Part shown: positions 1 through 16,124 of the stretch, one piece after another
Layout: the number at the start of each line of letters is the position of its first letter
Position numbering within the stretch: position 1 is the stretch's first letter
IMG/VR virus record: IMGVR_UViG_2617270954_000002
DNA from: a virus
Lineage: Duplodnaviria; Heunggongvirae; Uroviricota; Caudoviricetes
Strand: one strand, 5' to 3'
DNA: 19,115 nt
Notes under the pieces: generated by a model
Told to the model about the DNA's origin: nothing
Databases searched by the model: none
The model's input: the letters and a program-made list of their open reading frames with translations, nothing else
Made by a program: the position numbers and the translations under genes

Positions 1-195
1 GGTTACGGGGCGGCGACCTCGCGGTTTTTCACTATTTATGAAAATTTTTCAGGGAAAATCGTGTCGGTACTTCTCGAATATAACTTTTTGTTTTTTTTAA
101 TATTACATCCGTAAAGGTCCGACATGAAAGTGTCCGAAAATGCCTTTTTCTGGCGTTTTCATGTCGGGCCTTGTATTTGATAATGGGTTGTTTTC
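1..195 (+). other. cos: cos region: cosN (cohesive-end sequence GGGCGGCGACCT at 8-19) followed by cosB-like terminase binding region
   Basis: Bases 8-60 read GGGCGGCGACCTCGCGG..TATTTATGAAAATTTT, matching my recollection of the lambda left end; Nu1 starts about 190 bp downstream, the same spacing as lambda. Three copies of a TCRTGTCGG core sit at 59-67 (direct), 119-127 (inverted) and 159-167 (direct). Confidence 0.7.
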
Positions 196-744
196 ATGAA
201 GGTTAATAAAAAGAGGCTTGCCGAAATTTTCAACGTGGACCCGCGGACGATTGAACGCTGGCAGTCTCAGGGACTCCCTTGCGCCTCCAAAGGTAGTAAG
301 GGCATTGAATCTGTATTTGATACTGCCATGGCAATTCAGTGGTATGCGCAGAGGGAAACTGATATCGAAAACGAAAAGCTCCGCAAAGAACTGGACGATT
401 TGCGTGCGGCAGCGGAGTCAGATTTACAACCCGGCACCATTGACTATGAACGCTACCGGCTCACAAAAGCGCAGGCAGATGCGCAGGAACTGAAAAATGC
501 CCGTGAAGACGGAGTAGTGCTGGAAACTGAACTGTTTACCTTCATTCTGCAACGTGTGGCACAGGAGATTTCGGGGATACTTGTGCGTGTGCCGTTGACA
601 TTACAGCGTAAATATCCGGACATTTCACCATCACACCTTGATGTGGTGAAAACTGAAATCGCGAAAGCCTCCAATGTTGCAGCTAAGGCCGGTGAAAACG
701 TGGGCGGGTGGATCGATGATTTCAGACGCGCAGAAGGCAGCTAA
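196..744 (+). CDS. Nu1: terminase small subunit (gpNu1-like), N-terminal winged-HTH DNA-binding domain
   Basis: 182 aa ORF; [24 protein letters not shown] and ..[28 protein letters not shown] recalled as closely matching lambda gpNu1; sits directly after cos. Confidence 0.9.
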
Positions 745-2644
745 TGCAGCCGGTGCGATAGCTACAGGGCTTTTATCTCTCATTATTCCTGTTCCACTGA
801 CGACAGTTCAGTGGGCCAATAAACATTATTACCTTCCTAAAGAGTCGTCTTATACCCCCGGGCGGTGGGAAACACTGCCGTTTCAGGTTGGCATCATGAA
901 CTGTATGGGCAACGATCTGATTCGCACGGTTAACCTGATTAAATCTGCCCGTGTTGGTTATACAAAGATGTTGCTGGGAGTGGAGGCTTATTTTATTGAG
1001 CATAAATCACGCAACAGCCTTCTTTTTCAGCCCACGGATTCTGCTGCTGAAGATTTTATGAAATCTCATGTGGAACCCACGATCAGGGATGTGCCGGTTT
1101 TACTCGATCTTGCACCGTGGTTTGGGCGTAAACATCGTGATAATACCCTCACGCTGAAACGTTTTTCATCCGGTGTGGGGTTCTGGTGTCTGGGTGGTGC
1201 GGCAGCAAAAAACTACCGTGAAAAATCCGTGGATGTGGTCTGTTATGACGAGCTTTCCTCGTTCGAACCGGATGTCGAAAAAGAGGGTTCGCCAACCCTG
1301 CTTGGGGATAAACGTATTGAGGGCTCTGTATGGCCCAAATCCATTCGCGGCTCGACGCCTAAAATCAAAGGCACCTGCCAGATCGAAAAAGCGGCCAACG
1401 AGTCGGCGCATTTCATGCGTTTTTATGTGCCCTGCCCACACTGTGGGGAGGAGCAGTATCTGAAATTTGGCGATGAATCCACGCCTTTTGGCCTTAAATG
1501 GGAGAAGGACAGCCCCGAAAGCGTTTTCTACCTCTGTGAACATCATGGCTGCGTGATCCATCAGTCTGAGCTTGACCAGAGCAACGGGCGGTGGATCTGT
1601 GAAAACACGGGGATGTGGACCCGTGACGGTCTGACGTTTTTCAGCGCCGCGGATAATGAAATTCCGCCGCCGCGCTCCATCACGTTCCATATCTGGACGG
1701 CGTACAGTCCGTTCACCACCTGGGTACAGATAGTCTATGACTGGCTGGATGCACTGAAAGATCCCAACGGCCTGAAAACCTTTGTGAACACCACGCTGGG
1801 CGAGACCTGGGAAGAGGCCGTGGGCGAAAAACTCGATCACCAGGTACTGATGGATAAGGTCGTGCATTACACGGCGGCGGTGCCAGCCCGGGTGGTTTAT
1901 CTGACGGCGGGCATTGACTCGCAGCGAAACCGTTTTGAGATGTATGTCTGGGGATGGGCTCCGGGAGAGGAAGCCTTTCTGGTGGATAAAATCATCATTA
2001 TGGGGCGTCCCGATGAGGAAGAGACGCTGTTACGTTTGGATGCGGCGATCAACAAAAAATACTGCCATGCAGACGGAACCGAAATGACCATTTCCCGTGT
2101 CTGCTGGGACACCGGGGGGATCGATGGTGAAATTGTCTATCAGAGGTCAAAAAAACACGGTGTTTTCCGGGTGCTGCCGGTAAAAGGCGCATCTGTCTAT
2201 GGCAAGCCGGTGATCACCATGCCGAAAACCCGCAATCAGCGGGGCGTGTATCTGTGTGAAGTGGGGACGGACACCGCAAAAGAAATTCTCTATGCCCGTA
2301 TGAAAGCCGATCCCACGCCTGCGGATGAAGCCACGTCGTATGCCATCCGTTTTCCTGATGATCCGGAGATTTTTTCGCAGACAGAGGCGCAGCAACTGGT
2401 GGCGGAAGAGCTTGTGGAGAAGTGGGAAAAAGGAAAGATGCGTCTGCTGTGGGATAACAAAAAGCGGCGTAACGAAGCGCTGGACTGCCTGGTGTATGCC
2501 TATGCGGCATTACGTGTGTCCGTGCAACGCTGGCAGCTTGATCTGGCTGTACTGGCAAAATCCCGGGAAGAAGAGACGACCCGGCCAACCCTTAAAGAAC
2601 TGGCAGCGAAGCTGTCCGGAGGAGTGAATGGTTACAGTCGCTGA
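716..2644 (+). CDS. A: terminase large subunit (gpA-like; ATPase/endonuclease)
   Basis: ORF 674..2644 aligns along its length with recalled lambda gpA (YYLPKES.[12 protein letters not shown], [28 protein letters not shown]). Start placed at the in-frame ATG at 716, which overlaps the Nu1 3' end as in lambda; ATG 674 is the alternative. Confidence 0.88.
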
Positions 2645-2834
2645 ACTACAGGCGCTGCGTCAGGCGCGCCTTGATTTATTAACCGGTAAACGGGTGGTGT
2701 CTGTCCAGAAAGATGGTCGCAGAATTGAATATACGGCGGCTTCTCTGGATGAGCTTAACCGGGCGATCAATGATGCGGAGTCGGTACTGGGGACAACCCG
2801 ACGTCGCCGTCGTCCGCTGGGAGTGAGGTTATGA
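2628..2834 (+). CDS. W: head-tail joining protein gpW-like
   Basis: 68 aa, same length as lambda gpW, with motif LLTGKRVVSVQKDGRRIEYTAAS; overlaps the A stop and the B start (ATGA). Confidence 0.85.
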   Translation: MVTVAELQALRQARLDLLTGKRVVSVQKDGRRIEYTAASLDELNRAINDAESVLGTTRRRRRPLGVRL

Positions 2835-4423
2835 AACGAACGCCTGTCCTGATTGATGTGAACGGCGTTCCGCTTCGTGAGAGTCTCAGCTACAACGGGG
2901 GCGGCGCAGGATTTGGCGGGCAAATGGCTGAGTGGTTGCCACCGGCGCAGAGTGCCGATGCAGCCCTGCTGCCCGCGTTGCGTCTGGGGAATGCCCGGGC
3001 AGATGATCTGGTGCGCAATAACGGAATAGCGGCCAATGCGGTGGCCCTGCATAAGGATCACATTGTCGGGCATATGTTTCTGATTAGCTACCGTCCGAAC
3101 TGGCGCTGGCTGGGGATGCGGGAGACCGCGGCAAAAAGTTTTGTCGATGAGGTGGAGGCGGCCTGGTCAGAATACGCAGAAGGGATGTTTGGTGAGATCG
3201 ACGTGGAAGGGAAACGCACGTTTACGGAATTTATCCGTGAAGGTGTGGGCGTTCATGCGTTTAACGGCGAAATCTTTGTGCAGCCGGTCTGGGATACGGA
3301 GAGCACGCAACTGTTTCGTACGCGTTTTAAAGCCGTGAGTCCGAAACGGGTGGACACGCCAGGACACGGTATGGGGAACCGTTTTCTGCGGGCCGGTGTG
3401 GAGGTCGATCGATATGGTCGTGCCGTTGCGTACCATATCTGTGAGGATGATTTTCCTCGCTCCGGGAGTGGACGATGGGAACGGATCCCGCGTGAACTTC
3501 CCACCGGGCGTCCGGCCATGCTGCATATTTTCGAGCCGGTGGAGGACGGGCAGACCCGTGGAGCCAATCAGTTTTACAGCGTAATGGAACGGCTGAAGAT
3601 GCTCGATTCCCTGCAGGCAACACAGCTTCAGTCGGCCATAGTGAAGGCGATGTATGCAGCGACGATTGAAAGTGACCTTGATACCGAAAAGGCCTTTGAA
3701 TATATCGCCGGTGCGCCGCAGGGGCAGAAGGATAATCCGCTTATTAATATTCTGGATAAGTTCTCCACCTGGTATGACACGAATAGCGTGACGCTGGGCG
3801 GTGTCAAAATTCCGCACCTTTTCCCCGGTGATGATCTGAAACTTCAGACCGCGCAGGATTCAGACAATGGATTTTCGGCGCTTGAACAGGCGCTGCTGCG
3901 GTATATCGCCGCCGGTCTTGGCGTTTCCTACGAACAGTTGTCCCGTGATTACTCGAAGGTCAGTTATTCAAGTGCCCGCGCATCCGCCAATGAGTCGTGG
4001 CGCTATTTTATGGGGCGGCGAAAATTTATTGCGTCCCGGCTGGCCACGCAGATGTTTTCCTGCTGGCTGGAAGAGGCACTTCTTCGGGGGATTATTCGTC
4101 CGCCACGGGCACGTTTTGATTTTTATCAGGCGCGTTCAGCCTGGTCACGGGCTGAGTGGATTGGTGCCGGAAGAATGGCCATTGACGGGCTCAAGGAGGT
4201 TCAGGAATCGGTGATGCGTATTGAGGCCGGACTGAGCACGTATGAGAAAGAGCTGGCGCTGATGGGCGAGGATTATCAGGACATTTTCCGCCAGCAGGTC
4301 AGGGAATCTGCAGAGCGGGAAAAAGCCGGACTCTCACGTCCGGTGTGGATAGCGCAGGCGTATCAGCAGCAGATAGCGGAGAGTCGCAGGCCGGAAGAGG
4401 AGACAACACCACGTGAGACGTAA
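2831..4423 (+). CDS. B: portal protein gpB-like
   Basis: 530 aa (lambda gpB about 533 aa); long blocks recalled as matching lambda B, e.g. FEPVEDGQTRGANQFYSVME, LLRYIAAGLGVSYEQLSR, GRMAIDGLKEVQESVM. Confidence 0.9.
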   Translation: MKRTPVLIDVNGVPLRESLSYNGGGAGFGGQMAEWLPPAQSADAALLPALRLGNARADDLVRNNGIAANAVALHKDHIVGHMFLISYRPNWRWLGMRETAAKSFVDEVEAAWSEYAEGMFGEIDVEGKRTFTEFIREGVGVHAFNGEIFVQPVWDTESTQLFRTRFKAVSPKRVDTPGHGMGNRFLRAGVEVDRYGRAVAYHICEDDFPRSGSGRWERIPRELPTGRPAMLHIFEPVEDGQTRGANQFYSVMERLKMLDSLQATQLQSAIVKAMYAATIESDLDTEKAFEYIAGAPQGQKDNPLINILDKFSTWYDTNSVTLGGVKIPHLFPGDDLKLQTAQDSDNGFSALEQALLRYIAAGLGVSYEQLSRDYSKVSYSSARASANESWRYFMGRRKFIASRLATQMFSCWLEEALLRGIIRPPRARFDFYQARSAWSRAEWIGAGRMAIDGLKEVQESVMRIEAGLSTYEKELALMGEDYQDIFRQQVRESAEREKAGLSRPVWIAQAYQQQIAESRRPEEETTPRET

Positions 4424-5918
4424 TCTTTCACACATTATTGCAGCAGCATTCAATGAACCGCTGCTTCTGGAGCCCGCCTATGCGCGGGTTTTCTTTTGCG
4501 CGCTCGGGCGCGAGATGGGGGCAGCAAGTCTTTCGGTACCACAACAGCAGGTACAGTTTGATGCTCCCGGAATGCTGGCTGAAACGGACGAGTACATGGC
4601 CGGAGGTAAACGACCGGCCCGTGTTTACCGGGTGGTGAACGGTATTGCTGTACTGCCGGTGACAGGCACGCTGGTGCACCGGCTGGGCGGTATGCGGCCA
4701 TTTTCCGGAATGACAGGCTATGACGGCATTGTCGCCTGTCTTCAGCAGGCAATGGCAGATAGCCAGGTGCGGGGCGTACTGCTGGACATTGACAGTCCGG
4801 GCGGGCAGGCCGCCGGTGCGTTTGACTGTGCTGACATGATTTACCGCCTCCGTCAGCAGAAGCCGGTCTGGGCACTGTGCAATGACACGGCCTGTTCTGC
4901 AGCCATGCTGCTGGCGTCGGCCTGCTCCCGACGGCTGGTTACCCAGACATCCCGTATCGGCTCCATTGGTGTGATGATGAGCCATGTCAGCTATGCCGGT
5001 AATCTGGCGCAGGCCGGTGTGGATATCACGCTGATTTACTCAGGGGCGCACAAGGTGGATGGCAATCAGTTTGAAGTCTTACCGGAAGAGGTGCGTCAGG
5101 ACATGCAGCAGCGGATTGATGCGGCGCGCCGGATGTTTGCCGAAAAAGTGGCGATGTATACCGGTCTGTCTGTTGATGCAGTCACGGGAACAGAGGCCGC
5201 CGTTTTTGAAGGTCAGTCCGGCATTGAGGCCGGGCTGGCGGATGAATTAATCAATGCGTCGGATGCCATCAGTGTGATGGCCACGGCGCTGAACAGTAAT
5301 GTCAGAGGAGGCACTATGCCGCAATTAACTGCAACGGAAGCTGCCGCGCAGGAGAACCAGCGAGTGATGGGGATCCTGACGTGTCAGGAAGCGAAAGGAC
5401 GTGAACACCTTGCCACGATGCTGGCAGGACAACAGGGCATGAGCGTTGAACAGGCCCGGGCGATTCTGACCGCGGCAGCACCACAGCAGCCGGTGGCATC
5501 CACGCAGAGTGAAGCCGATCGCATTATGGCGTGTGAAGAGGCTAAAGGTCGTGAACAACTGGCGGCAACGCTGGCGGCGATGCCGGAGATGACGGTGGAA
5601 AAAGCCCGCCCGATCTTGGCTGCCTCACCGCAGGCGGATGCCGGGCCCTCACTTCGTGATCAGATCATGGCCCTGGATGAGGCAAAAGGGGCAGAAGCGC
5701 AGGCTGAAAAACTGGCGGCGTTTCCCGGAATGACGGTGGAGGCTGCCCGCGACATTCTGTCCTCATCGCCGGATAAAGCAGAACCGGTCTCTGCATCCAC
5801 AACTGCCCTGTTTGAACATTTCATGGCGAATCATTCACCGGCAGCGGTGCGGGGTGGCGTGTCACAGACGTCAGCAGACGGTGATGCGGACGTGAAAATG
5901 CTCATGGCCATGCCATGA
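4413..5918 (+). CDS. C: prohead protease/scaffold protein gpC-like (S49/ClpP-type fold), C-terminal scaffold domain
   Basis: 501 aa; N-terminal FNEPLLLEPAYARVFFCAL and the VWALCND..SAA..LASA / TSRIGSIGVMM region match recalled lambda gpC; overlaps the B stop. Confidence 0.85.
   Translation: MRRNLSHIIAAAFNEPLLLEPAYARVFFCALGREMGAASLSVPQQQVQFDAPGMLAETDEYMAGGKRPARVYRVVNGIAVLPVTGTLVHRLGGMRPFSGMTGYDGIVACLQQAMADSQVRGVLLDIDSPGGQAAGAFDCADMIYRLRQQKPVWALCNDTACSAAMLLASACSRRLVTQTSRIGSIGVMMSHVSYAGNLAQAGVDITLIYSGAHKVDGNQFEVLPEEVRQDMQQRIDAARRMFAEKVAMYTGLSVDAVTGTEAAVFEGQSGIEAGLADELINASDAISVMATALNSNVRGGTMPQLTATEAAAQENQRVMGILTCQEAKGREHLATMLAGQQGMSVEQARAILTAAAPQQPVASTQSEADRIMACEEAKGREQLAATLAAMPEMTVEKARPILAASPQADAGPSLRDQIMALDEAKGAEAQAEKLAAFPGMTVEAARDILSSSPDKAEPVSASTTALFEHFMANHSPAAVRGGVSQTSADGDADVKMLMAMP
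5316..5918 (+). CDS. Nu3: nested in-frame scaffold protein (Nu3-like), internal start within the C frame
   Basis: In-frame ATG at 5316 preceded by a strong Shine-Dalgarno (AGAGGAGG, 5304-5311); about 600 nt, close to the recalled lambda Nu3 length; shares its stop with C. Confidence 0.5.
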   Translation: MPQLTATEAAAQENQRVMGILTCQEAKGREHLATMLAGQQGMSVEQARAILTAAAPQQPVASTQSEADRIMACEEAKGREQLAATLAAMPEMTVEKARPILAASPQADAGPSLRDQIMALDEAKGAEAQAEKLAAFPGMTVEAARDILSSSPDKAEPVSASTTALFEHFMANHSPAAVRGGVSQTSADGDADVKMLMAMP

Positions 5919-5954
5919 AGTCAGTGCTGACCATCAATATGAGGTTTTAACAAA

Positions 5955-6301
5955 ATGGTGACGAAAACCATCACTGAACAGCGTGCGGAAGTACGTATTT
6001 TTGCCGGTAATGATCCGGCTCATACCGCCACAGGCAGCAGCGGGATTTCTCAGCAACACCGGCACTGACGCCCCTGATGCTGGATGAAGCCACCGGGAAA
6101 CTGGTGGTCTGGGACGGACAGAAAGCCGGTAGTGCGGCTGGCATACTGGTACTGCCGCTTGAAGGCACAGAGACGGTGCTGACCTATTACAAGTCGGGGA
6201 CCTTTGCGACGGAGGCAATCCGCTGGCCTGACAGTGTGGATGAACACAAAAAGGCAAATGCCTTTGCCGGCACAGCCCTGAGTCACGCGGCTCTGCCGTA
6301 A
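5955..6301 (+). pseudogene. D: head decoration protein gpD-like, interrupted by a frame break (candidate pseudogene or sequencing indel)
   Basis: ATG at 5955 gives MVTKTITEQRAEVRIFAGNDPAHTATGSSGISQQHRH then TGA at 6066-6068. The rest of the D homolog (LTPLMLDEATGKLVVWDG...YKSGTF...AFAGTA) continues to 6301 in the -1 frame. Lambda gpD is recalled as one continuous 110 aa protein. Confidence 0.6.
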
Positions 6302-6308
6302 CACGTTA

Positions 6309-6330
6309 TCAGGCCACCATGGTGGCCTGA
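6309..6330. repeat. 22-bp perfect palindrome (TCAGGCCACCATGGTGGCCTGA) in the D-E intergenic region
   Basis: The sequence equals its own reverse complement; it lies between the D stop (6301) and the E start (6359). Confidence 0.6.
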
Positions 6331-6358
6331 CTGATTTCTGAATGAAAGGAACTGATTT

Positions 6359-7387
6359 ATGGGATTGTTTACGACCCGCCAGTTACTCGGTTATACCGAA
6401 CAAAAAGTTAAATTCCGTGCGCTATTTCTGGAGCTGTTTTTCCGCCGTACGGTGAATTTCCACACCGAAGAGGTGATGCTGGACAAAATTACCGGAAAAA
6501 CGCCGGTGGCGGCCTATGTCTCCCCGATCGTTGAAGGAAAAGTGCTGCGCCATCGTGGTGGTGAAACCCGCGTGTTGCGTCCGGGCTACGTCAAGCCGAA
6601 ACACGAATTTAATTACCAGCAGGCGGTGGAGCGCCTTCCCGGTGAAGATCCGGCTCAGCTGAACGACCCGGCCTACCGTCGTCTGCGTATCATCACTGAT
6701 AACCTCAAACAGGAAGAGCACGCTATTGTGCAGGTGGAAGAAATGCAGGCGGTGAATGCCGTGCTGTATGGCAAATATACGATGGAAGGAGACCAGTTCG
6801 AGAAAATTGAGGTTGATTTTGGCAGATCGACGAAGAATAACATCATACAGGGTAGCGGTAAGGAGTGGTCAAAACAGGACCGTGACACGTTCGACCCGAC
6901 ATATGATATCGACCTTTTCTGTGATCAGGCCAGTGGTCTTGTGAATATTGCCATTATGGACGGTACCGTCTGGCGTCTGCTGAATGGCTTTAAGCTGTTC
7001 CGCGAAAAAATGGATACCCGTCGCGGTTCAAATTCACAACTCGAAACGGCAGTGAAAGACCTGGGCGCAGTGGTATCCTTCAAGGGGTATTACGGCGATC
7101 TGGCCATTGTGGTAGCGAAAACATCTTATGTGGCAGAGGACGGTACCGAAAAACGTTATCTGCCGGAGGGCACGCTGGTCCTGGGAAATACGGCTGCTGA
7201 GGGCATTCGTTGCTATGGTGCCATTCAGGATGCGCAGGCGTTGTCCGAAGGTGTGGTGGCCTCTTCCCGTTATCCGAAACACTGGCTGACCGTGGGCGAT
7301 CCGTCCTGTGAATTCACCATGACGCAGTCCGCTCCGCTGATGGTGCTGCCGGATCCGGATGAGTTTGTGGTGGTACAGGTGAAATAA
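6359..7387 (+). CDS. E: major capsid protein gpE-like
   Basis: 342 aa (lambda gpE 341 aa); motifs PGYVKPKHE, AIVQVEEMQAV, KLFREKMDTRRGSNSQLETAVKDLG and FTMTQSAPLMVLPDPDEFV match recalled lambda E. Confidence 0.92.
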   Translation: MGLFTTRQLLGYTEQKVKFRALFLELFFRRTVNFHTEEVMLDKITGKTPVAAYVSPIVEGKVLRHRGGETRVLRPGYVKPKHEFNYQQAVERLPGEDPAQLNDPAYRRLRIITDNLKQEEHAIVQVEEMQAVNAVLYGKYTMEGDQFEKIEVDFGRSTKNNIIQGSGKEWSKQDRDTFDPTYDIDLFCDQASGLVNIAIMDGTVWRLLNGFKLFREKMDTRRGSNSQLETAVKDLGAVVSFKGYYGDLAIVVAKTSYVAEDGTEKRYLPEGTLVLGNTAAEGIRCYGAIQDAQALSEGVVASSRYPKHWLTVGDPSCEFTMTQSAPLMVLPDPDEFVVVQVK

Positions 7388-7395
7388 TCCGTGAG

Positions 7396-7424
7396 CGGGG
7401 GCGAAATGCCCCCGTGTCTTTTTT
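7396..7424 (+). terminator. candidate rho-independent terminator/stem-loop after the capsid gene
   Basis: Stem CGGGGGC (7396-7402), loop GAAAT, stem GCCCCCG (7408-7414), followed by TGTCTTTTTT. Confidence 0.5.
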
Positions 7425-7439
7425 CACAGGGGGCTGGAT

Positions 7440-7809
7440 ATGGCAACAAAAGAAGAAAATCAGAAACGTCTTCGTGAACTGGCTGGCCTGCTGGGGCGCG
7501 AGGCGGATATGTCGGGGAGTGCTGCGGATATCGCACAGCGTGTGGCAGAGTGGGAAGAGGAGGTTTGCGCATCGGAAAATGAAATCGCAGATGTTGATGA
7601 TACCGTTTATGAGCAGGCATACAGGAACACCGGTGAGGATGACGTTCGGTATTCTGGAACGTATCATGCTTCTGAAGTGTTTTTACCTGTGCGGTGTTGA
7701 CGATGAAACAGGTGAGCCTGTTGAGCATGTTGATGCTGGCAGAGTAATTCTGATGCCCCCCTCAGTGGCAAAAGACATGGTCAGGAGCGGAATGGCCGTT
7801 TATGCGTGA
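7440..7809 (+). pseudogene. FI: DNA-packaging protein gpFI-like, split across two reading frames
   Basis: Frame of 7440 gives an N-terminus like recalled lambda FI (..LRELAGLLGRE...AADIAQRVAEWEEEV) and stops at 7698-7700. The FI-like C-terminus (LLKCFYLCGVDDETGEPV...AKDMVRSGMAVYA) is in the +1 frame, ending at 7809 and overlapping the FII start (ATGCGTGA). Break lies roughly within 7600-7650. Confidence 0.55.
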
Positions 7810-8155
7810 TTTTGAGAATTCCTTTGATGCTGCCCTTGCCGGGGTGGACAGAACGATTGTTGAAGTGATGGGGCTCTGTGCGCAGTTCACCTCGGGGGCA
7901 CAGTGTGGCAGCGAAGTTCAGGGGGTTTTTGACGATCCGGAGTCGCTGGGGTTTGCCGGTAGCGGGGTCCGTATTGAAGGAAGCAGCCCGTCATTATTTG
8001 TGCGGACGGATACGGTTCGTGCCGTGCGGCGTGGTGACACGCTGACCATTAATGGTGAGACATTCTGGGTGGATCGTGTTTCTCCGGATGACGGGGGTAG
8101 CTGTTATCTCTGGCTCAACCGTGGGCAACCACCCGCAGTTAACCGGCGACGATAA
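7802..8155 (+). CDS. FII: head-tail connector/tail attachment protein gpFII-like
   Basis: 117 aa, same as lambda FII; GVFDDPE, GVRIEGSSPSLFVRTD and FWVDRVSPDDGGSCYLWL..PPAVNRRR match recalled lambda FII. Confidence 0.88.
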   Translation: MRDFENSFDAALAGVDRTIVEVMGLCAQFTSGAQCGSEVQGVFDDPESLGFAGSGVRIEGSSPSLFVRTDTVRAVRRGDTLTINGETFWVDRVSPDDGGSCYLWLNRGQPPAVNRRR

Positions 8156-8169
8156 ACGCAGGGTGAATT

Positions 8170-8744
8170 ATGGCGATAAAAGGGCTTGATCAGGCGATTG
8201 ACAATCTGAGCCGGGTTCGTAAAAACGCCATTCCGGCTGCTTCTGCAATGACCATTAACCGCGTGGCCACAACGGCGATTAATCAGTCTTCATCACAGGT
8301 TGCCCGGGAGACAAAGGTTCGCCGGAAACTGGTTAAGGAACGGTCCAGACTGAAACGGGCGACGGTCAGAAATCCGAATGCCAGAATTATCGTTAACCGC
8401 GGTGATCTCCCTGTGATTAAGCTGGGGATCAGAATGCTGGGGCGTCGTCCGAACAGCATACTCAAAGCCGGTCAGCATCGTTATCAGCGGGCATTTATCC
8501 AGCGATTAAATAATGGGCGCTGGCATGTTATGCAACGTCTTCCCCAGGCCAGATATGACGGTGGCATGTCATGCAGCGTGTGGCCGGGAAAAATCGTTAC
8601 CCCATTGATGTGGTGAAAATTCCGATGGCGGTGCCGCTGACCACGGCGTTTAAACAGAATATTGAGCGGATACGGCGTGAGCGCCTTCCGAAAGAGCTGG
8701 GCTATGCGCTGCAGCATCAACTGAGGATGGTAATAAAGCGATGA
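8170..8744 (+). pseudogene. Z: minor tail protein gpZ-like, disrupted by a 41-bp imperfect tandem duplication causing a frame change
   Basis: N-terminus MAIKGLDQAIDNLSR..QVARETKVRRKLVKER.RLKRATV..NRGDLPVIKLG runs in the frame of 8170 through GRWHVMQR and stops at 8614-8616. A second WHVMQR, followed by the lambda-like C-terminus [54 protein letters not shown], starts at 8562 in another frame and ends at 8742-8744. Confidence 0.6.
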
Positions 8745-9136
8745 AACATACTGAACTCCGTGCAGCCGTACTGGATGCACTGGAGAAGCATGACACCGGG
8801 GCGACGTTTTTTGATGGTCGCCCCGCTGTTTTTGATGAGGCGGATTTTCCGGCAGTTGCCGTTTATCTCACCGGCGCTGAATACACGGGCGAAGAGCTGG
8901 ACAGCGATACCTGGCAGGCGGAGCTGCATATCGAAGTTTTCCTGCCTGCTCAGGTGCCGGATTCAGAGCTGGATTCGTGGATGGAGTCCCGGATTTATCC
9001 GGTGATGAGCGATATCCCGGCACTGTCAGATTTGATCACCAGTATGGTGGCCAGTGGCTATGACTATCGGCGCGACGATGATGCGGGCCTGTGGAGTTCA
9101 GCCGATCTGACTTATGTCATTACCTATGAAATGTGA
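8741..9136 (+). CDS. U: minor tail protein gpU-like (tail terminator)
   Basis: 131 aa; appears near-identical to my recollection of lambda gpU ([54 protein letters not shown]...); start overlaps the Z stop (ATGA). Confidence 0.9.
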
Positions 9137-9143
9137 GGACGCT

Positions 9144-9896
9144 ATGCCTGTACCAAATCCAGTAATGCCGGTGAAAGGTGCCGGGACCACACTGTGGGTT
9201 TATAAGGGGAACGGTGACCCTTATGCGAACCCGCTTTCAGACGTTGACTGGTCACGTCTGGCAAAAGTTAAAGACCTGACGCCGGGCGAGATGACGGCAG
9301 AATCCTACGATGATAACTACCTGGATGATGAAGACGCAGACTGGACCGCGACCGGGCAGGGGCAGAAATCTGCAGGTGATACCAGTTTTACGCTGGCCTG
9401 GAAACCGGGAGAGGAATGTCAGAAAGGGCTTATAGGCTGGTTTGAAAGCGGCGATGTCCGGGCCTATAAAATCCGTTTTCCGAATGGCACGGTGGATGTG
9501 TTTCGTGGCTGGGTCAGCAGTATCGGTAAGGCCGTGACGGCGAAAGAAGTGATCACCCGCACGGTGAAAGTCACTAACGTGGGTAAACCTTCTGTAGCGG
9601 AAGAACGCAGCAAAATTACGCCGGTCAGTGCGATTAAGGTGACGCCGACATCCGGTACGGTGGCAAAAGGGAAAACAACCACCCTGACGGTTTCTTTTGA
9701 GCCGGAAAGTGCAACCGACAAGACGTTCAGAGCGGTTTCCGCCGATCCGTCGAAAGCCACCATTAGTGTGAAAGATATGACAATTACGGTAAACGGCGTG
9801 GCGACAGGTAAGGTGCAGATCCCTGTGGTGAGCGGAAATGGTCAGTTCGCCGCAGTGGCTGAAGTCACCGTTACTGAAGCGGGCGCTGCAGGGTAA
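9144..9896 (+). CDS. V: major tail tube protein gpV-like with C-terminal Ig-like (BIG2-type) domain
   Basis: ORF 9114..9896; lambda-like start [22 protein letters not shown] at ATG 9144 with a GAGGA Shine-Dalgarno upstream; long stretches match recalled lambda V. Confidence 0.9.
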
Positions 9897-9909
9897 ACGG
9901 AGGTAATAC

Positions 9910-10341
9910 ATGTTTCTGAAAACAGAACAATTTGAATATAACGGTGTGTCTGTCACGCTTTCCGAATTGTCTGCGCTGCAGCGTATCGAGCATCTTGCCC
10001 TCCTGAAACGGCGTGCAGAACAGGCAGAATCCTGCGGCAACCTGCAGGTTAGCGTGGAAGATCTCGTCAGAACCGGCGCGTTTCTGGTGGCGATGTCCCT
10101 GTGGCATAACCATCCACAGAAAACGCAGTCACCGTCAATGAATGAGGCCGTGATGAAGATAGAGCAGGAAGTGCTCACCACCTGGCCTGCCGATGCCATT
10201 GCCCGGGCGGAAGACGTGGTGTTGTGCCTGTCCGGGATGATCGAAGCTGTTCGTCCGGATACTGATATTACTGAAGTGGCGAAAAATAACACGCTGACTG
10301 ATGATGATTTTTCTGCGGGAAAGTCTTCGACGGCGAGCTGA
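9910..10341 (+). CDS. G: tail assembly chaperone gpG-like
   Basis: 143 aa; MFLKTEQFEYNGVSVTLSELSALQRIEHLAL..TGAFLVAMSLWHNHPQKTQ matches recalled lambda G. Confidence 0.88.
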   Translation: MFLKTEQFEYNGVSVTLSELSALQRIEHLALLKRRAEQAESCGNLQVSVEDLVRTGAFLVAMSLWHNHPQKTQSPSMNEAVMKIEQEVLTTWPADAIARAEDVVLCLSGMIEAVRPDTDITEVAKNNTLTDDDFSAGKSSTAS

Positions 10342-10781
10342 ACTTTGCCCTCAGACTGGCGCGTGAGATGGGGAGACCCGACTGGCGCGCCATGCTTGCC
10401 GGGATGACATCCACCGAATATGCCGACTGGCACCGTTTTTACCGCACGCATTATTTTCAGGATACCCAGCTGGATATGCATTTTTCCGGGCTGACGTACG
10501 CTGTACTCAGCCTGTTTTTTTGCGATCCGGATATGCATCCCTCTGATTTCAGTCTGCTTGTCCCCCGGCATGAGGAAGAGCAGGTGGAGAGGCCGGATGA
10601 GGACAAAATGCTGATGCAGAAAGCGGCAGGACTTGCCGGAGGCGTCCGGTTCGGTGGGGACGGAGGGCGCGATATTTTATCGTCTGCGGATGTGGCGGAT
10701 GTCATGGTGGATGATGCCGCATTAATGATGGCTTCAGCGGGGATTCCGGGAGGTGTGAGATATGTCCCAGCCGGTTGGTGA
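9910..10781 (+). CDS. GT: tail assembly chaperone gpG-T fusion made by programmed -1 ribosomal frameshift
   Basis: Slippery heptamer GGGAAAG at 10317-10323 near the 3' end of G; the -1 frame continues VFDGELNFALRLAREMGRPDWRAMLAGMTSTEYADWHRFY... (lambda gpT-like) to the stop at 10779-10781. Confidence 0.75.
10317..10323 (+). promoter_or_regulatory. programmed -1 frameshift slippery site (G GGA AAG) for G-T
   Basis: Exact GGGAAAG heptamer in the G frame, 6 codons before the G stop; the T frame is open downstream. Confidence 0.7.
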
Positions 10782-13323
10782 TCTTGTTATTGACCTGAGT
10801 CTGGATGCTGTCCGTTTCGATGAGCAGATGAGCCGGGTAAGGCGTCATTTTTCAGGTCTGGATACCGACGCCAGAAAAACCGCCAGTGCTGTTGAACAGG
10901 GCCTGAGCCGCCAGGCGCTGGCTGCACAAAAAGCCGGGATTTCCGTCGGGCAGTATAAAGCGGCCATGCGAACCCTGCCCGCACAGTTTACGGATATCGC
11001 CACGCAGCTTGCCGGTGGTCAGAATCCCTGGTTGATCCTGCTGCAACAGGGCGGTCAGGTGAAGGACTCCTTCGGCGGGATGATCCCCATGTTCAGGGGG
11101 CTTGCCGGTGCGATCACCCTGCCGATGGTCGGGGTCACCTCGCTGGCGGTGGCGACAGGTGCGCTGGCGTACGCCTGGTACCAGGGCGACGCCACGCTTT
11201 CAGAATTTAATAAAACGCTGGTCCTTTCCGGCAATCAGGCCGGACTGACTGCCGATCGTATGCTGACGCTCTCAAGAGCCGGGCAGGCAGCAGGGCTGAC
11301 GTTTAACCAGGCGAGAGAGTCACTGGCAGCCCTGGTGAATGCCGGTGTGCGTGGTGGTGAACAGTTTGATGCCATCAACCAGAGTGTCGCGCGTTTTGCG
11401 TCTGCATCCGGTGTGGAGGTGGATAAAGTCGCTGAAGCCTTCGGGAAGCTGACCACTGACCCGACGTCGGGACTGATGGCGATGGCGCGCCAGTTCCGTA
11501 ACGTGACGGCAGAGCAGATTGCGTATGTTGCACAGCTGCAGCGTTCCGGAGACGAGGCCGGGGCATTGCAGGCGGCGAACGATATCGCCACGAAAGGCTT
11601 TGATGAGCAGACCCGTCGCCTGAAAGAAAACATGGGAACACTGGAGACCTGGGCGGATAAAACAGGGAAGGCATTCAAATCGATGTGGGATGCCATTCTG
11701 GATATCGGTCGTCCGGAATCCTCAGCGGATATGCTCGCCAGTGCGCAGAGGGCATTTGATGAGGCGGATAAAAAATGGCAGTGGTACCAGAGCCGGAGCC
11801 AGCGCCGGGGAAAGACCTCCTCTTTTCGTGCGAACCTTCAGGGGGCATGGGATGACCGGGAAAATGCCCGTCTGGGTCTGGCAGCGGCCACGCTGCAGTC
11901 GGATATGGAAAAAGCCGGTGAACTGGCGGCAAGGGACAGGGCTGAGCGTGAGTCGTCACAGCTGAAGTATACCGGAGAGGCGCAGAAGGCGTATGAGCGC
12001 CTGCAGACGCCGCTGGATAAATATACCGCCCGTCAGAAAGAGCTGAATAAGGCCCTGAAAGACGGAAAAATCCTGCAGGCGGATTACAACACGCTGATGG
12101 CGTCGGCAAAAAAGGATTATGAATCGACGCTGAAAAAGCCGTCAGGTGTGAAGGTGTCTGCCGGTGAGCGCCAGGAAGACCGGGCGCATGCAGCCCTGCT
12201 GGCGCTTGAAACCGAGCTCAGGACGCTGGAAAAACACAGCGGTGTGAATGAGAAAATCAGCCAGCAGCGCCGGGATTTATGGGAAGCGGAAAGTCAGTAT
12301 GTGGTCCTGAAAGAGGCCGCCACGAAACGGCAGTTATCTGAGCAGGAAAAATCCCTGCTGGCTCATGAGAAAGAGACGCTGGAGTACAAACGCCAGCTGG
12401 CTGAGCTGGGAGACAAGATTGAACACCAGAAGCGGCTGAATGAGCTGGCACAGCAGGCGGCGCGGTTTGAACAGCAGCAAAGCGCGAAGCAGGCGGCAAT
12501 CAGCGCAAAAGCCCGCGGCCTCACCGACCGTCAGGCGCAGCGGGAGTCGGAAGAGCAGCGCCTTCGTGAGGTGTACGGTGATAATCCGGCTGCGCTGGCG
12601 AAGGCCACATCGGCACTGAAGAACACCTGGTCTGCGGAGGAGCAGCTTCGTGGAAGCTGGATGGCCGGGATGAAGTCCGGCTGGGGAGAGTGGGCGGAAA
12701 GTGCGACGGACAGTTTTTCGCAGGTTAAAAGTGTGGCCACGCAGACCTTTGACGGTATTGCACAGAATATGGCGGCGATGCTGACCGGCAGCGAACAGAA
12801 CTGGCGGGGATTCACCCGTTCCGTGCTGTCCATGATGACAGAAATTCTGCTTAAGCAGGCAATGGTGGGGATTGTCGGGAGTATCGGCAGCGCCATTGGC
12901 GGGGCTGTTGGTGGCGGCGCATCCGCGTCAGGCGGTACAGCCATTCAGGCCGCTGCGGCGAAATTCCATTTTGCAACCGGAGGATTTACGGGAACCGGCG
13001 GCAAATATGAGCCAGCGGGGATTGTTCACCGTGGTGAATTTGTCTTCACAAAGGAGGCAACCAGCCGGATTGGCGTGGGGAATCTCTACCGGCTGATGCG
13101 CGGCTATGCCACCGGTGGTTATGTCGGTACACCGGGCAGTCTGGCTGACAGCCGGTCGCAGGCGTCCGGGACGTTTGAGCAGAATAACCATGTGGTGATT
13201 AACAACGACGGCACGAACGGGCAGATAGGTCCGGCTGCTCTGAAGGCGGTGTATGACATGGCCCGCAAGGGTGCCCGTGATGAAATTCAGACACAGATGC
13301 GTGATGGTGGACTGTTCTCCTGA
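10762..13323 (+). CDS. H: tail tape measure protein gpH-like
   Basis: 853 aa (same as recalled lambda gpH); N-terminus PVGDLVIDLSLDAVRFDEQM and C-terminal region AMVGIVGSIGSAIGGAVGGGASASGG...GTNGQIGPAALKAVYDMARKGARDEIQTQMRDGGLFS match lambda H. Confidence 0.92.
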   Translation: MSQPVGDLVIDLSLDAVRFDEQMSRVRRHFSGLDTDARKTASAVEQGLSRQALAAQKAGISVGQYKAAMRTLPAQFTDIATQLAGGQNPWLILLQQGGQVKDSFGGMIPMFRGLAGAITLPMVGVTSLAVATGALAYAWYQGDATLSEFNKTLVLSGNQAGLTADRMLTLSRAGQAAGLTFNQARESLAALVNAGVRGGEQFDAINQSVARFASASGVEVDKVAEAFGKLTTDPTSGLMAMARQFRNVTAEQIAYVAQLQRSGDEAGALQAANDIATKGFDEQTRRLKENMGTLETWADKTGKAFKSMWDAILDIGRPESSADMLASAQRAFDEADKKWQWYQSRSQRRGKTSSFRANLQGAWDDRENARLGLAAATLQSDMEKAGELAARDRAERESSQLKYTGEAQKAYERLQTPLDKYTARQKELNKALKDGKILQADYNTLMASAKKDYESTLKKPSGVKVSAGERQEDRAHAALLALETELRTLEKHSGVNEKISQQRRDLWEAESQYVVLKEAATKRQLSEQEKSLLAHEKETLEYKRQLAELGDKIEHQKRLNELAQQAARFEQQQSAKQAAISAKARGLTDRQAQRESEEQRLREVYGDNPAALAKATSALKNTWSAEEQLRGSWMAGMKSGWGEWAESATDSFSQVKSVATQTFDGIAQNMAAMLTGSEQNWRGFTRSVLSMMTEILLKQAMVGIVGSIGSAIGGAVGGGASASGGTAIQAAAAKFHFATGGFTGTGGKYEPAGIVHRGEFVFTKEATSRIGVGNLYRLMRGYATGGYVGTPGSLADSRSQASGTFEQNNHVVINNDGTNGQIGPAALKAVYDMARKGARDEIQTQMRDGGLFS

Positions 13324-13331
13324 GGTGGACG

Positions 13332-13661
13332 ATGAAAACCTTCCGCTGGAAAGTGAAACCCGGGATGGATGTGACATCGGCTCCTTCCGTCAGGGAGGTG
13401 CGCTTTGGTGATGGCTATTCCCAGCGTGCGCCTGCCGGGCTGAACGCTGACCTGAAAACGTACAGCGTGACGCTGTCTGTCTCCCGTGAGGAGGCCACGG
13501 CGCTGGAGTCGTTTCTGGCTGAGCACGGGGGCTGGAAGGCCTTTCTGTGGACGCCGCCTTATGGTTACAGGCAGATAAAGGTGACCTGCGCAAAATGGTC
13601 GTCGCAGGTCAGTATGTTGCGTGTTGGGTTCAGCGCAGAGTTTAAACAGGTGGTGAACTGA
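13332..13661 (+). CDS. M: minor tail protein gpM-like
   Basis: 109 aa, same as lambda M; position after H; sequence recalled as lambda M-like. Confidence 0.85.
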   Translation: MKTFRWKVKPGMDVTSAPSVREVRFGDGYSQRAPAGLNADLKTYSVTLSVSREEATALESFLAEHGGWKAFLWTPPYGYRQIKVTCAKWSSQVSMLRVGFSAEFKQVVN

Positions 13662-14359
13662 TGCAGGATATCCGGCAGGAAACACTGAATGAATGCACCC
13701 GTGCGGAGCAGTCGGCCAGCGTGGTGCTCTGGGAAATCGATCTGACAGAGGTCGGTGGAGAACGTTATTTTTTCTGTAATGAGCAGAACGAAAAAGGTGA
13801 GCCGGTCACCTGGCAGGGGAGGCAGTATCAGGCGTATCCCATTCAGGGGAGCGGTTTTGAACTGAATGGCAAAGGCACCAGTACGCGGCCCACGCTGGCA
13901 GTCTCTAACCTGTACGGCATGGTCACCGGTATGGTGGAAGATATGCAGAGTCTGGTCGGCGGAACGGTGGTCCGGCGTAAGGTTTACGCCCGTTTTCTGG
14001 ATGCGGTGAACTTCGTCAACGGAAACAGAGACGCCGATCCGGAGCAGGAGGTGATCAGCCGCTGGCGCATCGAGCAGTGCAGCGAACTGAGCGCGGTGAG
14101 TGCCTCCTTTGTACTGTCCACGCCGACGGAAACGGATGGCGCTGTTTTTCCGGGGCGTATCATGCTGGCCAACACCTGCACCTGGACCTATCGCGGTGAT
14201 GAGTGCGGTTATCACGGTCCGGCAGTCGCGGATGAATATGACCAGCCGACGTCCGATATCACGAAGGATAAATGCAGCAAATGCCTGAGCGGCTGTAAGT
14301 TTCGCAATAACGTCGGCAACTTTGGCGGCTTCCTTTCCATTAACAAACTTTCGCAGTAA
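13661..14359 (+). CDS. L: minor tail protein gpL-like (tail tip complex; lambda L binds an Fe-S cluster via C-terminal cysteines)
   Basis: 232 aa, same as lambda L; start overlaps the M stop (TGATG); Cys-rich C-terminus (CTWTYRGDECGY...DKCSKCLSGCKFRNN). Confidence 0.85.
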   Translation: MQDIRQETLNECTRAEQSASVVLWEIDLTEVGGERYFFCNEQNEKGEPVTWQGRQYQAYPIQGSGFELNGKGTSTRPTLAVSNLYGMVTGMVEDMQSLVGGTVVRRKVYARFLDAVNFVNGNRDADPEQEVISRWRIEQCSELSAVSASFVLSTPTETDGAVFPGRIMLANTCTWTYRGDECGYHGPAVADEYDQPTSDITKDKCSKCLSGCKFRNNVGNFGGFLSINKLSQ

Positions 14360-14363
14360 TCCC

Positions 14364-15107
14364 ATGACAGAGACAGAATCAGCGATTCTGGCGCACGCCC
14401 GGCGATGTGCGCCAGCGGAGTCGTGCGGCTTCGTGGTAAGCACGCCGGAGGGGGAAAGATATTTCCCCTGCGTGAATATCTCCGGTGAGCCGGAGGCGTA
14501 TTTCCGGATGGCTCCGGAGGACTGGCTGCAGGCAGAGATGCAGGGTGAGATTGTGGCGCTGGTCCACAGCCACCCCGGTGGTCTGCCCTGGCTGAGTGAG
14601 GCTGACCGGCGGCTGCAGGTGCAGAGCGATTTGCCGTGGTGGCTGGTCTGCCGGGGGGCGATTCACAAGTTCCGCTGTGTGCCGCATCTCACCGGGCGGC
14701 GCTTTGAGTACGGGGTGACGGACTGTTACACACTGTTCCGGGATGCTTACCATCTGGCGGGGATTGAGATGCCGGATTTTCATCGCGGGGATGACTGGTG
14801 GCGTCACGGTCAGAATCTCTATCTTGACAATATGGAGGCTACTGGTTTTTACCGTGTCGCACTGACAGAGGCGCAGCCGGGCGATGTGCTGCTGTGCTGT
14901 TTTGGTTCATCGGTGCCGAATCACGCCGCCATTTACTGCGGCGACGGTGAGCTGCTGCACCATATTCCTGAACAACTGAGTAAACGAGAGAGGTATACCG
15001 ACAAATGGCAGCGACGCACACACTCCCTCTGGCGTCACCGGGAATGGCACGCATCTGCCTTTACGGGGATTTGCAACGATTTGGCCGCCGCATCGACCTT
15101 CGAGTGA
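14364..15107 (+). CDS. K: tail tip assembly protein gpK-like (JAB/MPN metalloprotease-like plus NlpC/P60-like domains)
   Basis: ORF 14322..15107; lambda-like start MTETESAILAHARRCAPAESCGFV at ATG 14364; HSHPGG (JAMM-like) motif and a downstream Cys/His region; overlaps the I start by about 100 nt as in lambda. Confidence 0.8.
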   Translation: MTETESAILAHARRCAPAESCGFVVSTPEGERYFPCVNISGEPEAYFRMAPEDWLQAEMQGEIVALVHSHPGGLPWLSEADRRLQVQSDLPWWLVCRGAIHKFRCVPHLTGRRFEYGVTDCYTLFRDAYHLAGIEMPDFHRGDDWWRHGQNLYLDNMEATGFYRVALTEAQPGDVLLCCFGSSVPNHAAIYCGDGELLHHIPEQLSKRERYTDKWQRRTHSLWRHREWHASAFTGICNDLAAASTFE

Positions 15108-15646
15108 AAACGGGGGCTGAAGCCATCCGGGCACTGGCCACACAGCTCCCGGCGTTTCGTCAGAAACTGAGCGATGGCTGGTATCAGGTACGGATTGCCG
15201 GGCGGGATGCAGGAGAAACCGAATTATCATCCCGTCTTAATGAGCCGCTGGCAAATGGTGCCGTGATCCACATCGTGCCGCGTCTTGCGGGAGCAAAAAG
15301 TGGCGGTGTGTTTCAGGCGGTGCTGGGTGCGGCGTTGATTGCTACGGCAATCTGGATGCCGGGGATCAGTATCGCTTTCAGTGACATTCTCTTTTCAATG
15401 GGTGCGGCGATGACGCTTGGTGGTGTGGCGCAGATGCTGGCACCGAAAGCCAGAACTCCCCGTACACAGACAACGGATAACGGCAAACAGAACACCTATT
15501 TCTCCTCACTGGATAACATGGTTGCCCAGGGCAATGTCCTGCCTGTTCTGTACGGTGAAATGCGCGTGGGGTCACGTGTGGCATCTCAGGAGATCAGCAC
15601 GGCAGATGAAGGGGATGGTGGTCAGGTTGTGGTAATTGGGCGGTAA
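15005..15646 (+). CDS. I: tail tip assembly protein gpI-like
   Basis: 213 aa; YFSSLDNMVAQGNVLPVLYGEMRVGSRVASQEISTADEGDGGQVVVIGR matches the recalled lambda I C-terminus. Confidence 0.82.
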   Translation: MAATHTLPLASPGMARICLYGDLQRFGRRIDLRVKTGAEAIRALATQLPAFRQKLSDGWYQVRIAGRDAGETELSSRLNEPLANGAVIHIVPRLAGAKSGGVFQAVLGAALIATAIWMPGISIAFSDILFSMGAAMTLGGVAQMLAPKARTPRTQTTDNGKQNTYFSSLDNMVAQGNVLPVLYGEMRVGSRVASQEISTADEGDGGQVVVIGR

Positions 15647-15669
15647 TATTATTTTACTCATGTTCTAAC

Positions 15670-15700
15670 TGATTTAATATTTATATCGAACACTGATAAT
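15670..15700 (+). promoter_or_regulatory. candidate sigma70-type promoter for the lipoprotein gene (weak call)
   Basis: AT-rich stretch with a -10-like GATAAT (15695-15700) about 20 nt upstream of the ATG and weak -35-like hexamers (TGATTT/TTAATA) about 17-19 nt further upstream; no strong consensus. Confidence 0.2.
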
Positions 15701-15719
15701 TATTCTATTGGTTAGCTAT

Positions 15720-16058
15720 ATGAACAAAACGATTTTATTCTGCACGATTATTGCCTTAACAGGATGTAAGTCTTTGGATTACGTAAAATCCGGAAAACCT
15801 GTAATGGAAGGTAATTCATTAAAAAATATTGATGAATTGTCAGGCTGCATATCCAGACAATGGGCTGGTAATGGAACACCTATAACATCCCTTCCTATTG
15901 AGAATGGGGTAAGCCTTTTAGTTCCACAGGCTATGGGGGGATATGATGTTGTGCTTGATATCAAAAAAGCAGGAAATGGCAGTAGTTTTACTCTTTATGA
16001 ACGTGTACCAGCATTAACGCCAAAAATTTTTGCTGATAGTGTTAATGCATGTAAATAA
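15720..16058 (+). CDS. small secreted lipoprotein of unknown function (phage moron); mature protein about 97 aa, predicted outer-membrane lipoprotein
   Basis: ORF 15708..16058, with ATG at 15720 preferred over the TTG at 15708. N-terminus MNKTILFCTIIALTGC is a lipoprotein signal peptide with lipobox LTGC; residue after the Cys is Lys (not Asp), consistent with Lol export to the outer membrane. The gene is AT-rich within a GC-rich operon. Confidence 0.6.
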   Translation: MNKTILFCTIIALTGCKSLDYVKSGKPVMEGNSLKNIDELSGCISRQWAGNGTPITSLPIENGVSLLVPQAMGGYDVVLDIKKAGNGSSFTLYERVPALTPKIFADSVNACK

Positions 16059-16082
16059 TAGTTAATCCTGTCGTAACTCATG

Positions 16083-16110
16083 AGCCGCCTTTTGGGCGGC
16101 TTTGTTGTTT
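16083..16110 (+). terminator. candidate rho-independent terminator downstream of the lipoprotein gene
   Basis: Stem AGCCGCC (16083-16089), loop TTTTG, stem GGCGGCT (16095-16101), followed by TTGTTGTTT. Confidence 0.55.
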
Positions 16111-16124
16111 ATGGAGTGTGAGGA

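Follow-up and report, generated by a model that had tools for sequence, protein, structure and literature searches.

The analysed DNA, here called the window, is a stretch of 19,115 bp. It begins with GGTTACG, 7 bp before cosN, and GGGCGGCGACCT follows at the nucleotides 8–19. The interval between cosN and the terS gene is 176 bp, and this is where cosB is located in lambda-like phages. The sites and genes at this end are given below, together with the corresponding positions in the records of phage 21 (window = M81255 − 159 = OL657228 + 7).

13–24 bp upstream of window position 1, outside the window: cosQ/R4, GGGTCCTTTCCG, seen in M81255 and in the prophage of Escherichia coli FORC_069
8–19, plus strand: cosN, the 12-base cohesive end GGGCGGCGACCT and site of the staggered TerL nicks, identical to bp 1–12 of lambda and phage 21; the cos nicking subsite in OL657228
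37–51, plus strand: I2, putative secondary IHF site between cosN and R3; M81255.1 196–210; the IHF sequence at 31–41 of X02501 corresponds to window 38–48
57–72, plus strand: R3 box, AATCGTGTCGGTACTT, critical putative site of TerS (gp1); M81255 216–231, OL657228 50–65; identical to phage 21
59–67, plus strand: TCRTGTCGG core of R3, TCGTGTCGG
79–93, minus strand: I1, IHF site between R3 and R2, with the core AAACAAAAAGTTA at 81–93; M81255 238–252, OL657228 74–86
114–129, minus strand: R2 box, TTTCATGTCGGACCTT, inverted relative to R3 and R1; M81255 273–288 in the opposite orientation, OL657228 107–122
119–127, minus strand: TCRTGTCGG core of R2, TCATGTCGG
157–172, plus strand: R1 box, TTTCATGTCGGGCCTT; M81255 316–331, OL657228 150–166
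159–167, plus strand: TCRTGTCGG core of R1, TCATGTCGG
179–193, plus strand: I0, putative IHF site overlapping the ribosome-binding site (RBS) of gene 1; M81255 338–352; a one-mismatch IHF consensus lies at 181–193 on the minus strand
185–188: RBS of gene 1; M81255 344–347, OL657228 178–181
196–744, plus strand: gene 1 for the 182-aa small terminase subunit (TerS or gp1), homologous to Nu1; Pfam Phage_Nu1, E = 1.9e-81
716–2644, plus strand: gene 2, large terminase subunit (TerL); CDS 709–2637 of phage 21 (+7); the enclosing ORF is 674–2644

The three TCRTGTCGG cores, direct, inverted and direct, are exactly where the initial annotation had placed them. It had read them as a cosB with R3, inverted R2 and R1 around an IHF site, and the annotations of M81255 and OL657228 have the same sites. 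The arrangement found here, namely adjacency to cosN, three R boxes with R2 in the opposite orientation, I1 between R3 and R2, and a Nu1-family gene followed by a TerL gene, is by its sequence that of a lambda-like complex cosB.

I1 matches the IHF consensus WATCARNNNNTTR at 12 of 13 positions (minus strand, 81–93), and its T-tract reaches about 103. Matches of this quality are not enriched in the whole window, in which 24 were found against 18.25 expected, and the identification of I1 by the consensus match alone was rejected for this reason. Because the consensus match is unremarkable, the assignment of I1 rests on the positional homology with lambda I1, with which it is aligned column for column, and on the deposited annotations. 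An AT-rich tract at about 85–105 had initially been named as a possible IHF bend site. The tract is real, but the annotated I1 (79/81–93) overlaps only its left part.

The TerS encoded by gene 1 has the same sequence as gp1 of phage 21 (100% identity), and it shares 52% identity with lambda Nu1. Its N-terminal part is a winged helix-turn-helix DNA-binding domain, with the recognition helix RTIERWQS at residues 17–24, including E20 and S24. Residues 1–54 are identical to PDB 7LWR, an entry for which the literature search found no paper mentioning it. PDB 7LW0, 1J9I, and 6HN7 represent the domain of lambda, and 7LXS represents residues 1–54 of Gifsy-1 TerS. Between this DNA-binding domain and that of lambda Nu1, 28 of the 54 residues are identical (52%). 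The recognition helix retains 5 of 8 residues (RTIERWQS versus RTIQNWQE), and the wing, residues 31–39, retains 4 of 9. The domain had been described as diverged, and it is, although no more so than the whole protein. In FORC_069, the counterpart of gene 2 carries the annotation terminase large subunit.

Relation to phage 21 and the determinants of specificity

Nucleotides 1–200 of the window are 99.5% identical to three independent cos records of phage 21: M81255, X02501/M23775, and OL657228, the last being a complete genome from 2021. The sole difference is A at window 106 (G in phage 21), which lies in the spacer between I1 and R2, outside all annotated sites. The sequences of cosN, R3, I1, R2, R1, and the RBS are thus identical to those of phage 21, as is gp1. 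Based on these alignments, window 8–195 is almost certainly the cosN–cosB of a phage 21-type cos, with the TCRTGTCGG cores as the centres of the 16-bp boxes R3, R2, and R1 and with the specificity of phage 21.

The packaging specificity of phage 21 has been under genetic study since the 1980s. The growth of phage 21 is reportedly strictly dependent on IHF, a finding attributed to Feiss, Frackman and Sippy in 1985. The boxes of the window are real and functional-looking, and the feature is already known: it has GenBank annotations, its genetics have been dissected, and its structure has been characterised. The binding of gp1 to the R boxes of phage 21, labelled "putative" in M81255, is backed by genetics and by the homology to lambda. 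For lambda itself, it is known that TerS binds the R boxes and that accurate nicking of cosN depends on this (PMC9026076, PMC4669245).

In the alignment of R3 with lambda, the core is CGTGTCGG in the window and CGTTTCCG in lambda. It is changed at phage bp 56 (window 63; G versus T in lambda) and bp 59 (window 66; G versus C in lambda). This is what the initially proposed alignment with the cos regions of lambda and phage 21 yields: boxes identical to those of phage 21, and a core differing from lambda at two positions. As cited in PMC4669245, Sippy et al. (2015, Virology 476:115) mapped the discrimination between lambda and 21 to these two base pairs of R3 and to residues 20 and 24 of TerS. 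In the account given there, Glu24 of lambda clashes with G:C at bp 56 of R3-21. Each of the two phages packages the DNA of the other more than 1000-fold worse than its own (PMC4669245).

The window carries the 21 state at all four determinants (G56, G59, E20, and S24). Since all known determinants are identical in sequence, it is expected that the DNA of the window would be packaged efficiently by the 21 terminase, with more than 1000-fold discrimination against it by the lambda terminase.

A distinct packaging specificity had initially been suggested for this pair of cosB and TerS, by analogy with lambda versus phage 21. It is indeed non-lambda, and the boxes and the TerS domain have diverged together; it is not new, however, because it is the cosB/gp1 pair of phage 21 itself. 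A third specificity, unlike that of lambda and that of phage 21, could be argued from boxes unlike those of lambda and from a TerS that is merely 52% identical to Nu1. Against this, the R boxes, I1, and the entire gp1 are those of phage 21, and base 106 in the I1–R2 spacer is the only difference in window 1–200. Such a third specificity is extremely improbable, and at the sequence level it was rejected.

A packaging mechanism can be drawn from PMC4669245 and PMC9026076 and applied to the window by homology with lambda and with the genetics of 21 and lambda. In the working model of PMC9026076, I1 is bent by about 180 degrees by IHF, a TerS dimer sits on R3 and R2, and TerL is anchored for accurate nicking of cosN. 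Here, IHF would bind I1 at 81–93 and bend the DNA by about 180 degrees. A dimer of the winged helix-turn-helix N-terminal domains of TerS would occupy R3 and R2, and R1 would provide a third site. The C-terminal domain of TerS would anchor TerL, the product of gene 2, at the correct distance for nicking cosN at 8–19, and the nicks would generate the 12-base cohesive end and the start of packaging. Discrimination from lambda would come from the G:C pairs at the equivalents of bp 56 and 59 of the R box (T:A and C:G in lambda), read by E20 and S24 of gp1 (Q20 and E24 in lambda).

Occurrence of the boxes and their pairing with TerS

The sequence TCRTGTCGG has exactly three matches in the whole window, both strands included, and all of them lie between cosN (8–19) and the gene at 196–744. 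The expected count is 0.37, and at least three matches anywhere were seen in 4 of 200 shuffles. Because this pattern was chosen post hoc, a local test was added, in which window 20–195 was shuffled and any 9-mer with at least 4 G/C was accepted if it had three copies with at most one mismatch on either strand. A three-copy family was present in 14 of 1000 shuffles. The repeat by itself is moderately unlikely by chance, and the decisive support is homology and conservation.

The relatives compared are IdasGreatGrand, an O157:H7 prophage, ECL27829, YC21-F17, and PhiR5_1, in addition to 80 loci from IMG/VR. Among the loci with the helix RTIERWQSQ and enough upstream DNA, all 48 bear boxes of the (Y)RTGTCG type. 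Loci with the Gifsy-1-type helix RT[IV]TAWQSQ carry three CAGATCC boxes, and lambda, with RTIQNWQEQ, has CGTTTCC.

There are 30 distinct upstream sequences, window included, with identity to the window down to 65%. Exactly three YRTGTCG sites are seen in 27 of them. The other three have two sites, with one box being a single-base variant. The mean column conservation in the 30 sequences is 0.97 for R3, 0.96 for R2, 0.94 for R1, and 0.94 for I1, while the spacers show 0.83–0.86. In a smaller, diverged set, the R boxes show 0.91–0.94 and the spacers 0.75–0.77. The boxes are therefore kept among phages with similar Nu1 proteins, and the initial idea withstands this comparison. Being conserved and tied to the helix class of TerS, the boxes are supported as recognition sites of TerS.

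The three 9-mers could also be a chance repeat without function. A three-copy family in 1.4% of the local shuffles is not vanishingly rare. However, the positions of the boxes are homologous to those of the lambda R sites, the boxes are kept above the spacer level in diverged relatives, the box type tracks the helix class of TerS, and the function is backed by published genetics. A chance repeat was therefore rejected; it is hardly credible, even less so than a third specificity.

Several relatives show variation of their own. Three IMG/VR loci (L073–L075), whose TerS is 72% identical to that of the window, have the helix RTIERWQSQ followed by GM. Their R cores are ACGTGTCGG, ACGTGTCGT, and TCGTGTCGT, and their R2–R1 spacer, which lacks the inner hairpin, differs considerably. 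These loci show the GTGTCG core persisting amid changed surroundings.

PhiR5_1 (L006), with its cos at about 700–895, has the variant helix RTIDRWQT (D20 and T24), and its R cores, GCATGTCAG, CTGATGTCG (reverse complement), and TCATGTCGT, are variant as well. This phage may represent a sub-specificity between the 21 class and the others. A description of this variant was not found in PMC4669245 or PMC9026076.

The prophages of E. coli YC21-F17 (L008, 700–720) and E. coli ECL27829 (L009, 700–720) combine a 21-type cosB with the RTIERWQSQ helix. Their cohesive ends are GGGCGGCAGCGG and GGGCGGAAGGCG, respectively, versus GGGCGGCGACCT in the window, and the right half differs. The nucleotides 7–12 of cosN are said, following Feiss, to be variable among lambda-like phages, and the ends of YC21-F17 and ECL27829 fit this.

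The R2–R1 dyad

The inverted orientation of R2 relative to R1 is part of a longer symmetry:

114–172, no strand assigned: extended R2–R1 dyad, an inverted repeat with arms at 114–140 and 146–172, reaching beyond the 16-bp R boxes

Folded as RNA, the dyad gives a hairpin of 26 pairs with −35.5 kcal/mol and z = −7.85. Ten of the pairs lie outside the R boxes, and the hairpin ends 23 nt before the start codon of gene 1. It can be speculated that the R2–R1 palindrome is also a nucleic-acid structure, either a hairpin of the late mRNA upstream of the RBS of gene 1 or a DNA cruciform, whose inner stem (130–140/146–156) is selected. In the mRNA version, an RNase III target, an RNA stabiliser, or a translational element is one possibility. 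If true, the inner stem-loop (130–156) would have its own role in the expression of the terminase genes or in the assembly of the packaging-initiation complex.

Besides the energy and the pairs beyond the boxes, the recurrence of the structure speaks for such a role. Comparable extended hairpins are seen in lambda, the O157-type, YC21, and two Gifsy-1-type classes, with differing inner sequences. In the Gifsy-1-type classes, the apical stem of an A-run and a T-run has the opposite polarity. The inner spacer folded alone gives z from −0.2 to −4.5 and beats the shuffles (p ≤ 0.05) in 6 of 10 class representatives, but the inner stem is no better than shuffles in L073, L087, and the window itself.

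The signal of covariation is also small. In the inner helix, 86% of the cells are paired, but each pair changed on both sides occurs in one sequence only, and 57 of 500 shuffles score at least as high. The stem is followed by a weak T-run, template switching can homogenise the arms of a palindrome without selection, and PMC4669245 and PMC9026076 name no structural role of this kind.

Since a hairpin arises in any case from two sites of one protein in inverted orientation, it is treated here as a by-product, most likely of the symmetry of the protein sites and the dyad symmetry of the spacer. A selected structural role is unlikely. An intrinsic terminator at the hairpin was considered separately and rejected; the scan gave only a weak 8-pair stem at 149–168 with a poor T tail.

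The mosaic prophage and other cosB systems

Over 90% of its length, the whole window shows about 92% identity to phage 21. Its top match (97.8%) comes from prophages in E. coli FORC_069 and NCCP15648 and in O104:H4 strains. The identity to phage 21 is 93.6% at 8–8426 (cos through head genes), 81.8% at 8559–11735, 88.7% at 11956–15642, and 95.1% at 16094–19115 (J). Phage 21 has no counterpart for two stretches of the window. Downstream of the terminase genes lies a full lambda-like set of head and tail genes up to J. The cos segment is carried by an E. coli prophage or phage of the lambdoid kind, 21-like and mosaic. By these comparisons, the element is a 21-type relative and not phage 21 itself.

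The mosaicism is sharp, as the cos and gene 1 show 99.5–100% identity to phage 21, far above the neighbouring blocks. The packaging-specificity module is better kept than its neighbours, and this is the pattern expected of a co-adapted cassette exchanged by recombination. Among 5,426 complete E. coli genomes, 1,180 have a match covering at least 80% of window 1–200, and CFT073 is among the 99.5% matches. The TerS-21 of a CFT073 prophage was employed in work on PICIs (PMC9026076). Based on this genome count, the match in CFT073, and the mosaic identity to phage 21, the 21 packaging module is a mosaic cassette with a wide distribution.

Two other parts of the window differ from phage 21. In the gene Z (tail completion protein; 8170–8745), the ORF stops at 8616 after 148 aa, whereas Z has 191–192 aa in phage 21 and the FORC_069 prophage. 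Two diverged copies of a stretch coding for GRWHVMQR are found at 8512–8580, the second out of frame, and the 21-like C-terminus (RWHVMQRVAGKNRYPIDVVKIPMAV...KR*) runs on in another frame to about 8743. The pattern resembles a recombination joint that carries a frameshift or a sequencing error, and the prophage may be tail-defective.

The other part is 15647–16093, which is absent from phage 21. It contains an extra ORF of 116 aa at 15708–16058, between the tail genes I and J, as a moron-like insertion. The ORF has no Pfam match, and its counterpart in FORC_069 is the hypothetical protein WP_001332187.1.

Lambdoid packaging specificity has two classical models, and the cosB/gp1 pair of phage 21 is one of them. 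For annotation, this means that the prophage of the window and roughly a fifth of complete E. coli genomes use the 21 packaging specificity. This specificity predicts which helper terminases, cosmids, or PICI-type satellites could be packaged with it. The table of helix class versus box type (21, lambda, Gifsy-1-type, and PhiR5_1-type) is a quick classifier of cos specificity for surveys of prophages.

The layout R3-I1-R2-R1 is common to lambda, phi80, 21, and Gifsy-1 (PMC9026076), and phage 21 has a complex cosB (PMC4669245; PMC9026076). With phage 21, the window shares every annotated site and gp1, while the remainder is mosaic and phage 21 lacks the extra ORF between I and J. Lambda has an identical cosN and the same architecture, with the three R boxes and I1 in the same orientation and at the same positions. 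The cores of lambda and the window start at phage bp 54, about 112–119, and 154–156. At these homologous positions lambda has the R core CGTTTCC and the window has CRTGTCG, so that the boxes are unlike those of lambda, as was initially noticed; the helix is RTIQNWQE (Q20 and E24) versus RTIERWQS.

In the Gifsy-1-type cosB of Salmonella and enteric prophages, a Nu1-family TerS is likewise preceded by three R boxes, the second of which is inverted, and the R2–R1 interval is also dyad-symmetric. The R core of this type, CAGATCC, and its helix, RT[IV]TAWQS, are unlike those of the window; the structure of its DNA-binding domain has been solved (7LXS). Phage N15 has a "simple" cosB, with a lambda-like cosN and a Nu1-family TerS reading a site equivalent to R3 (PMC4669245). 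N15 has this single critical R3 without I1, R2, and R1, whereas the window has the full complex arrangement.
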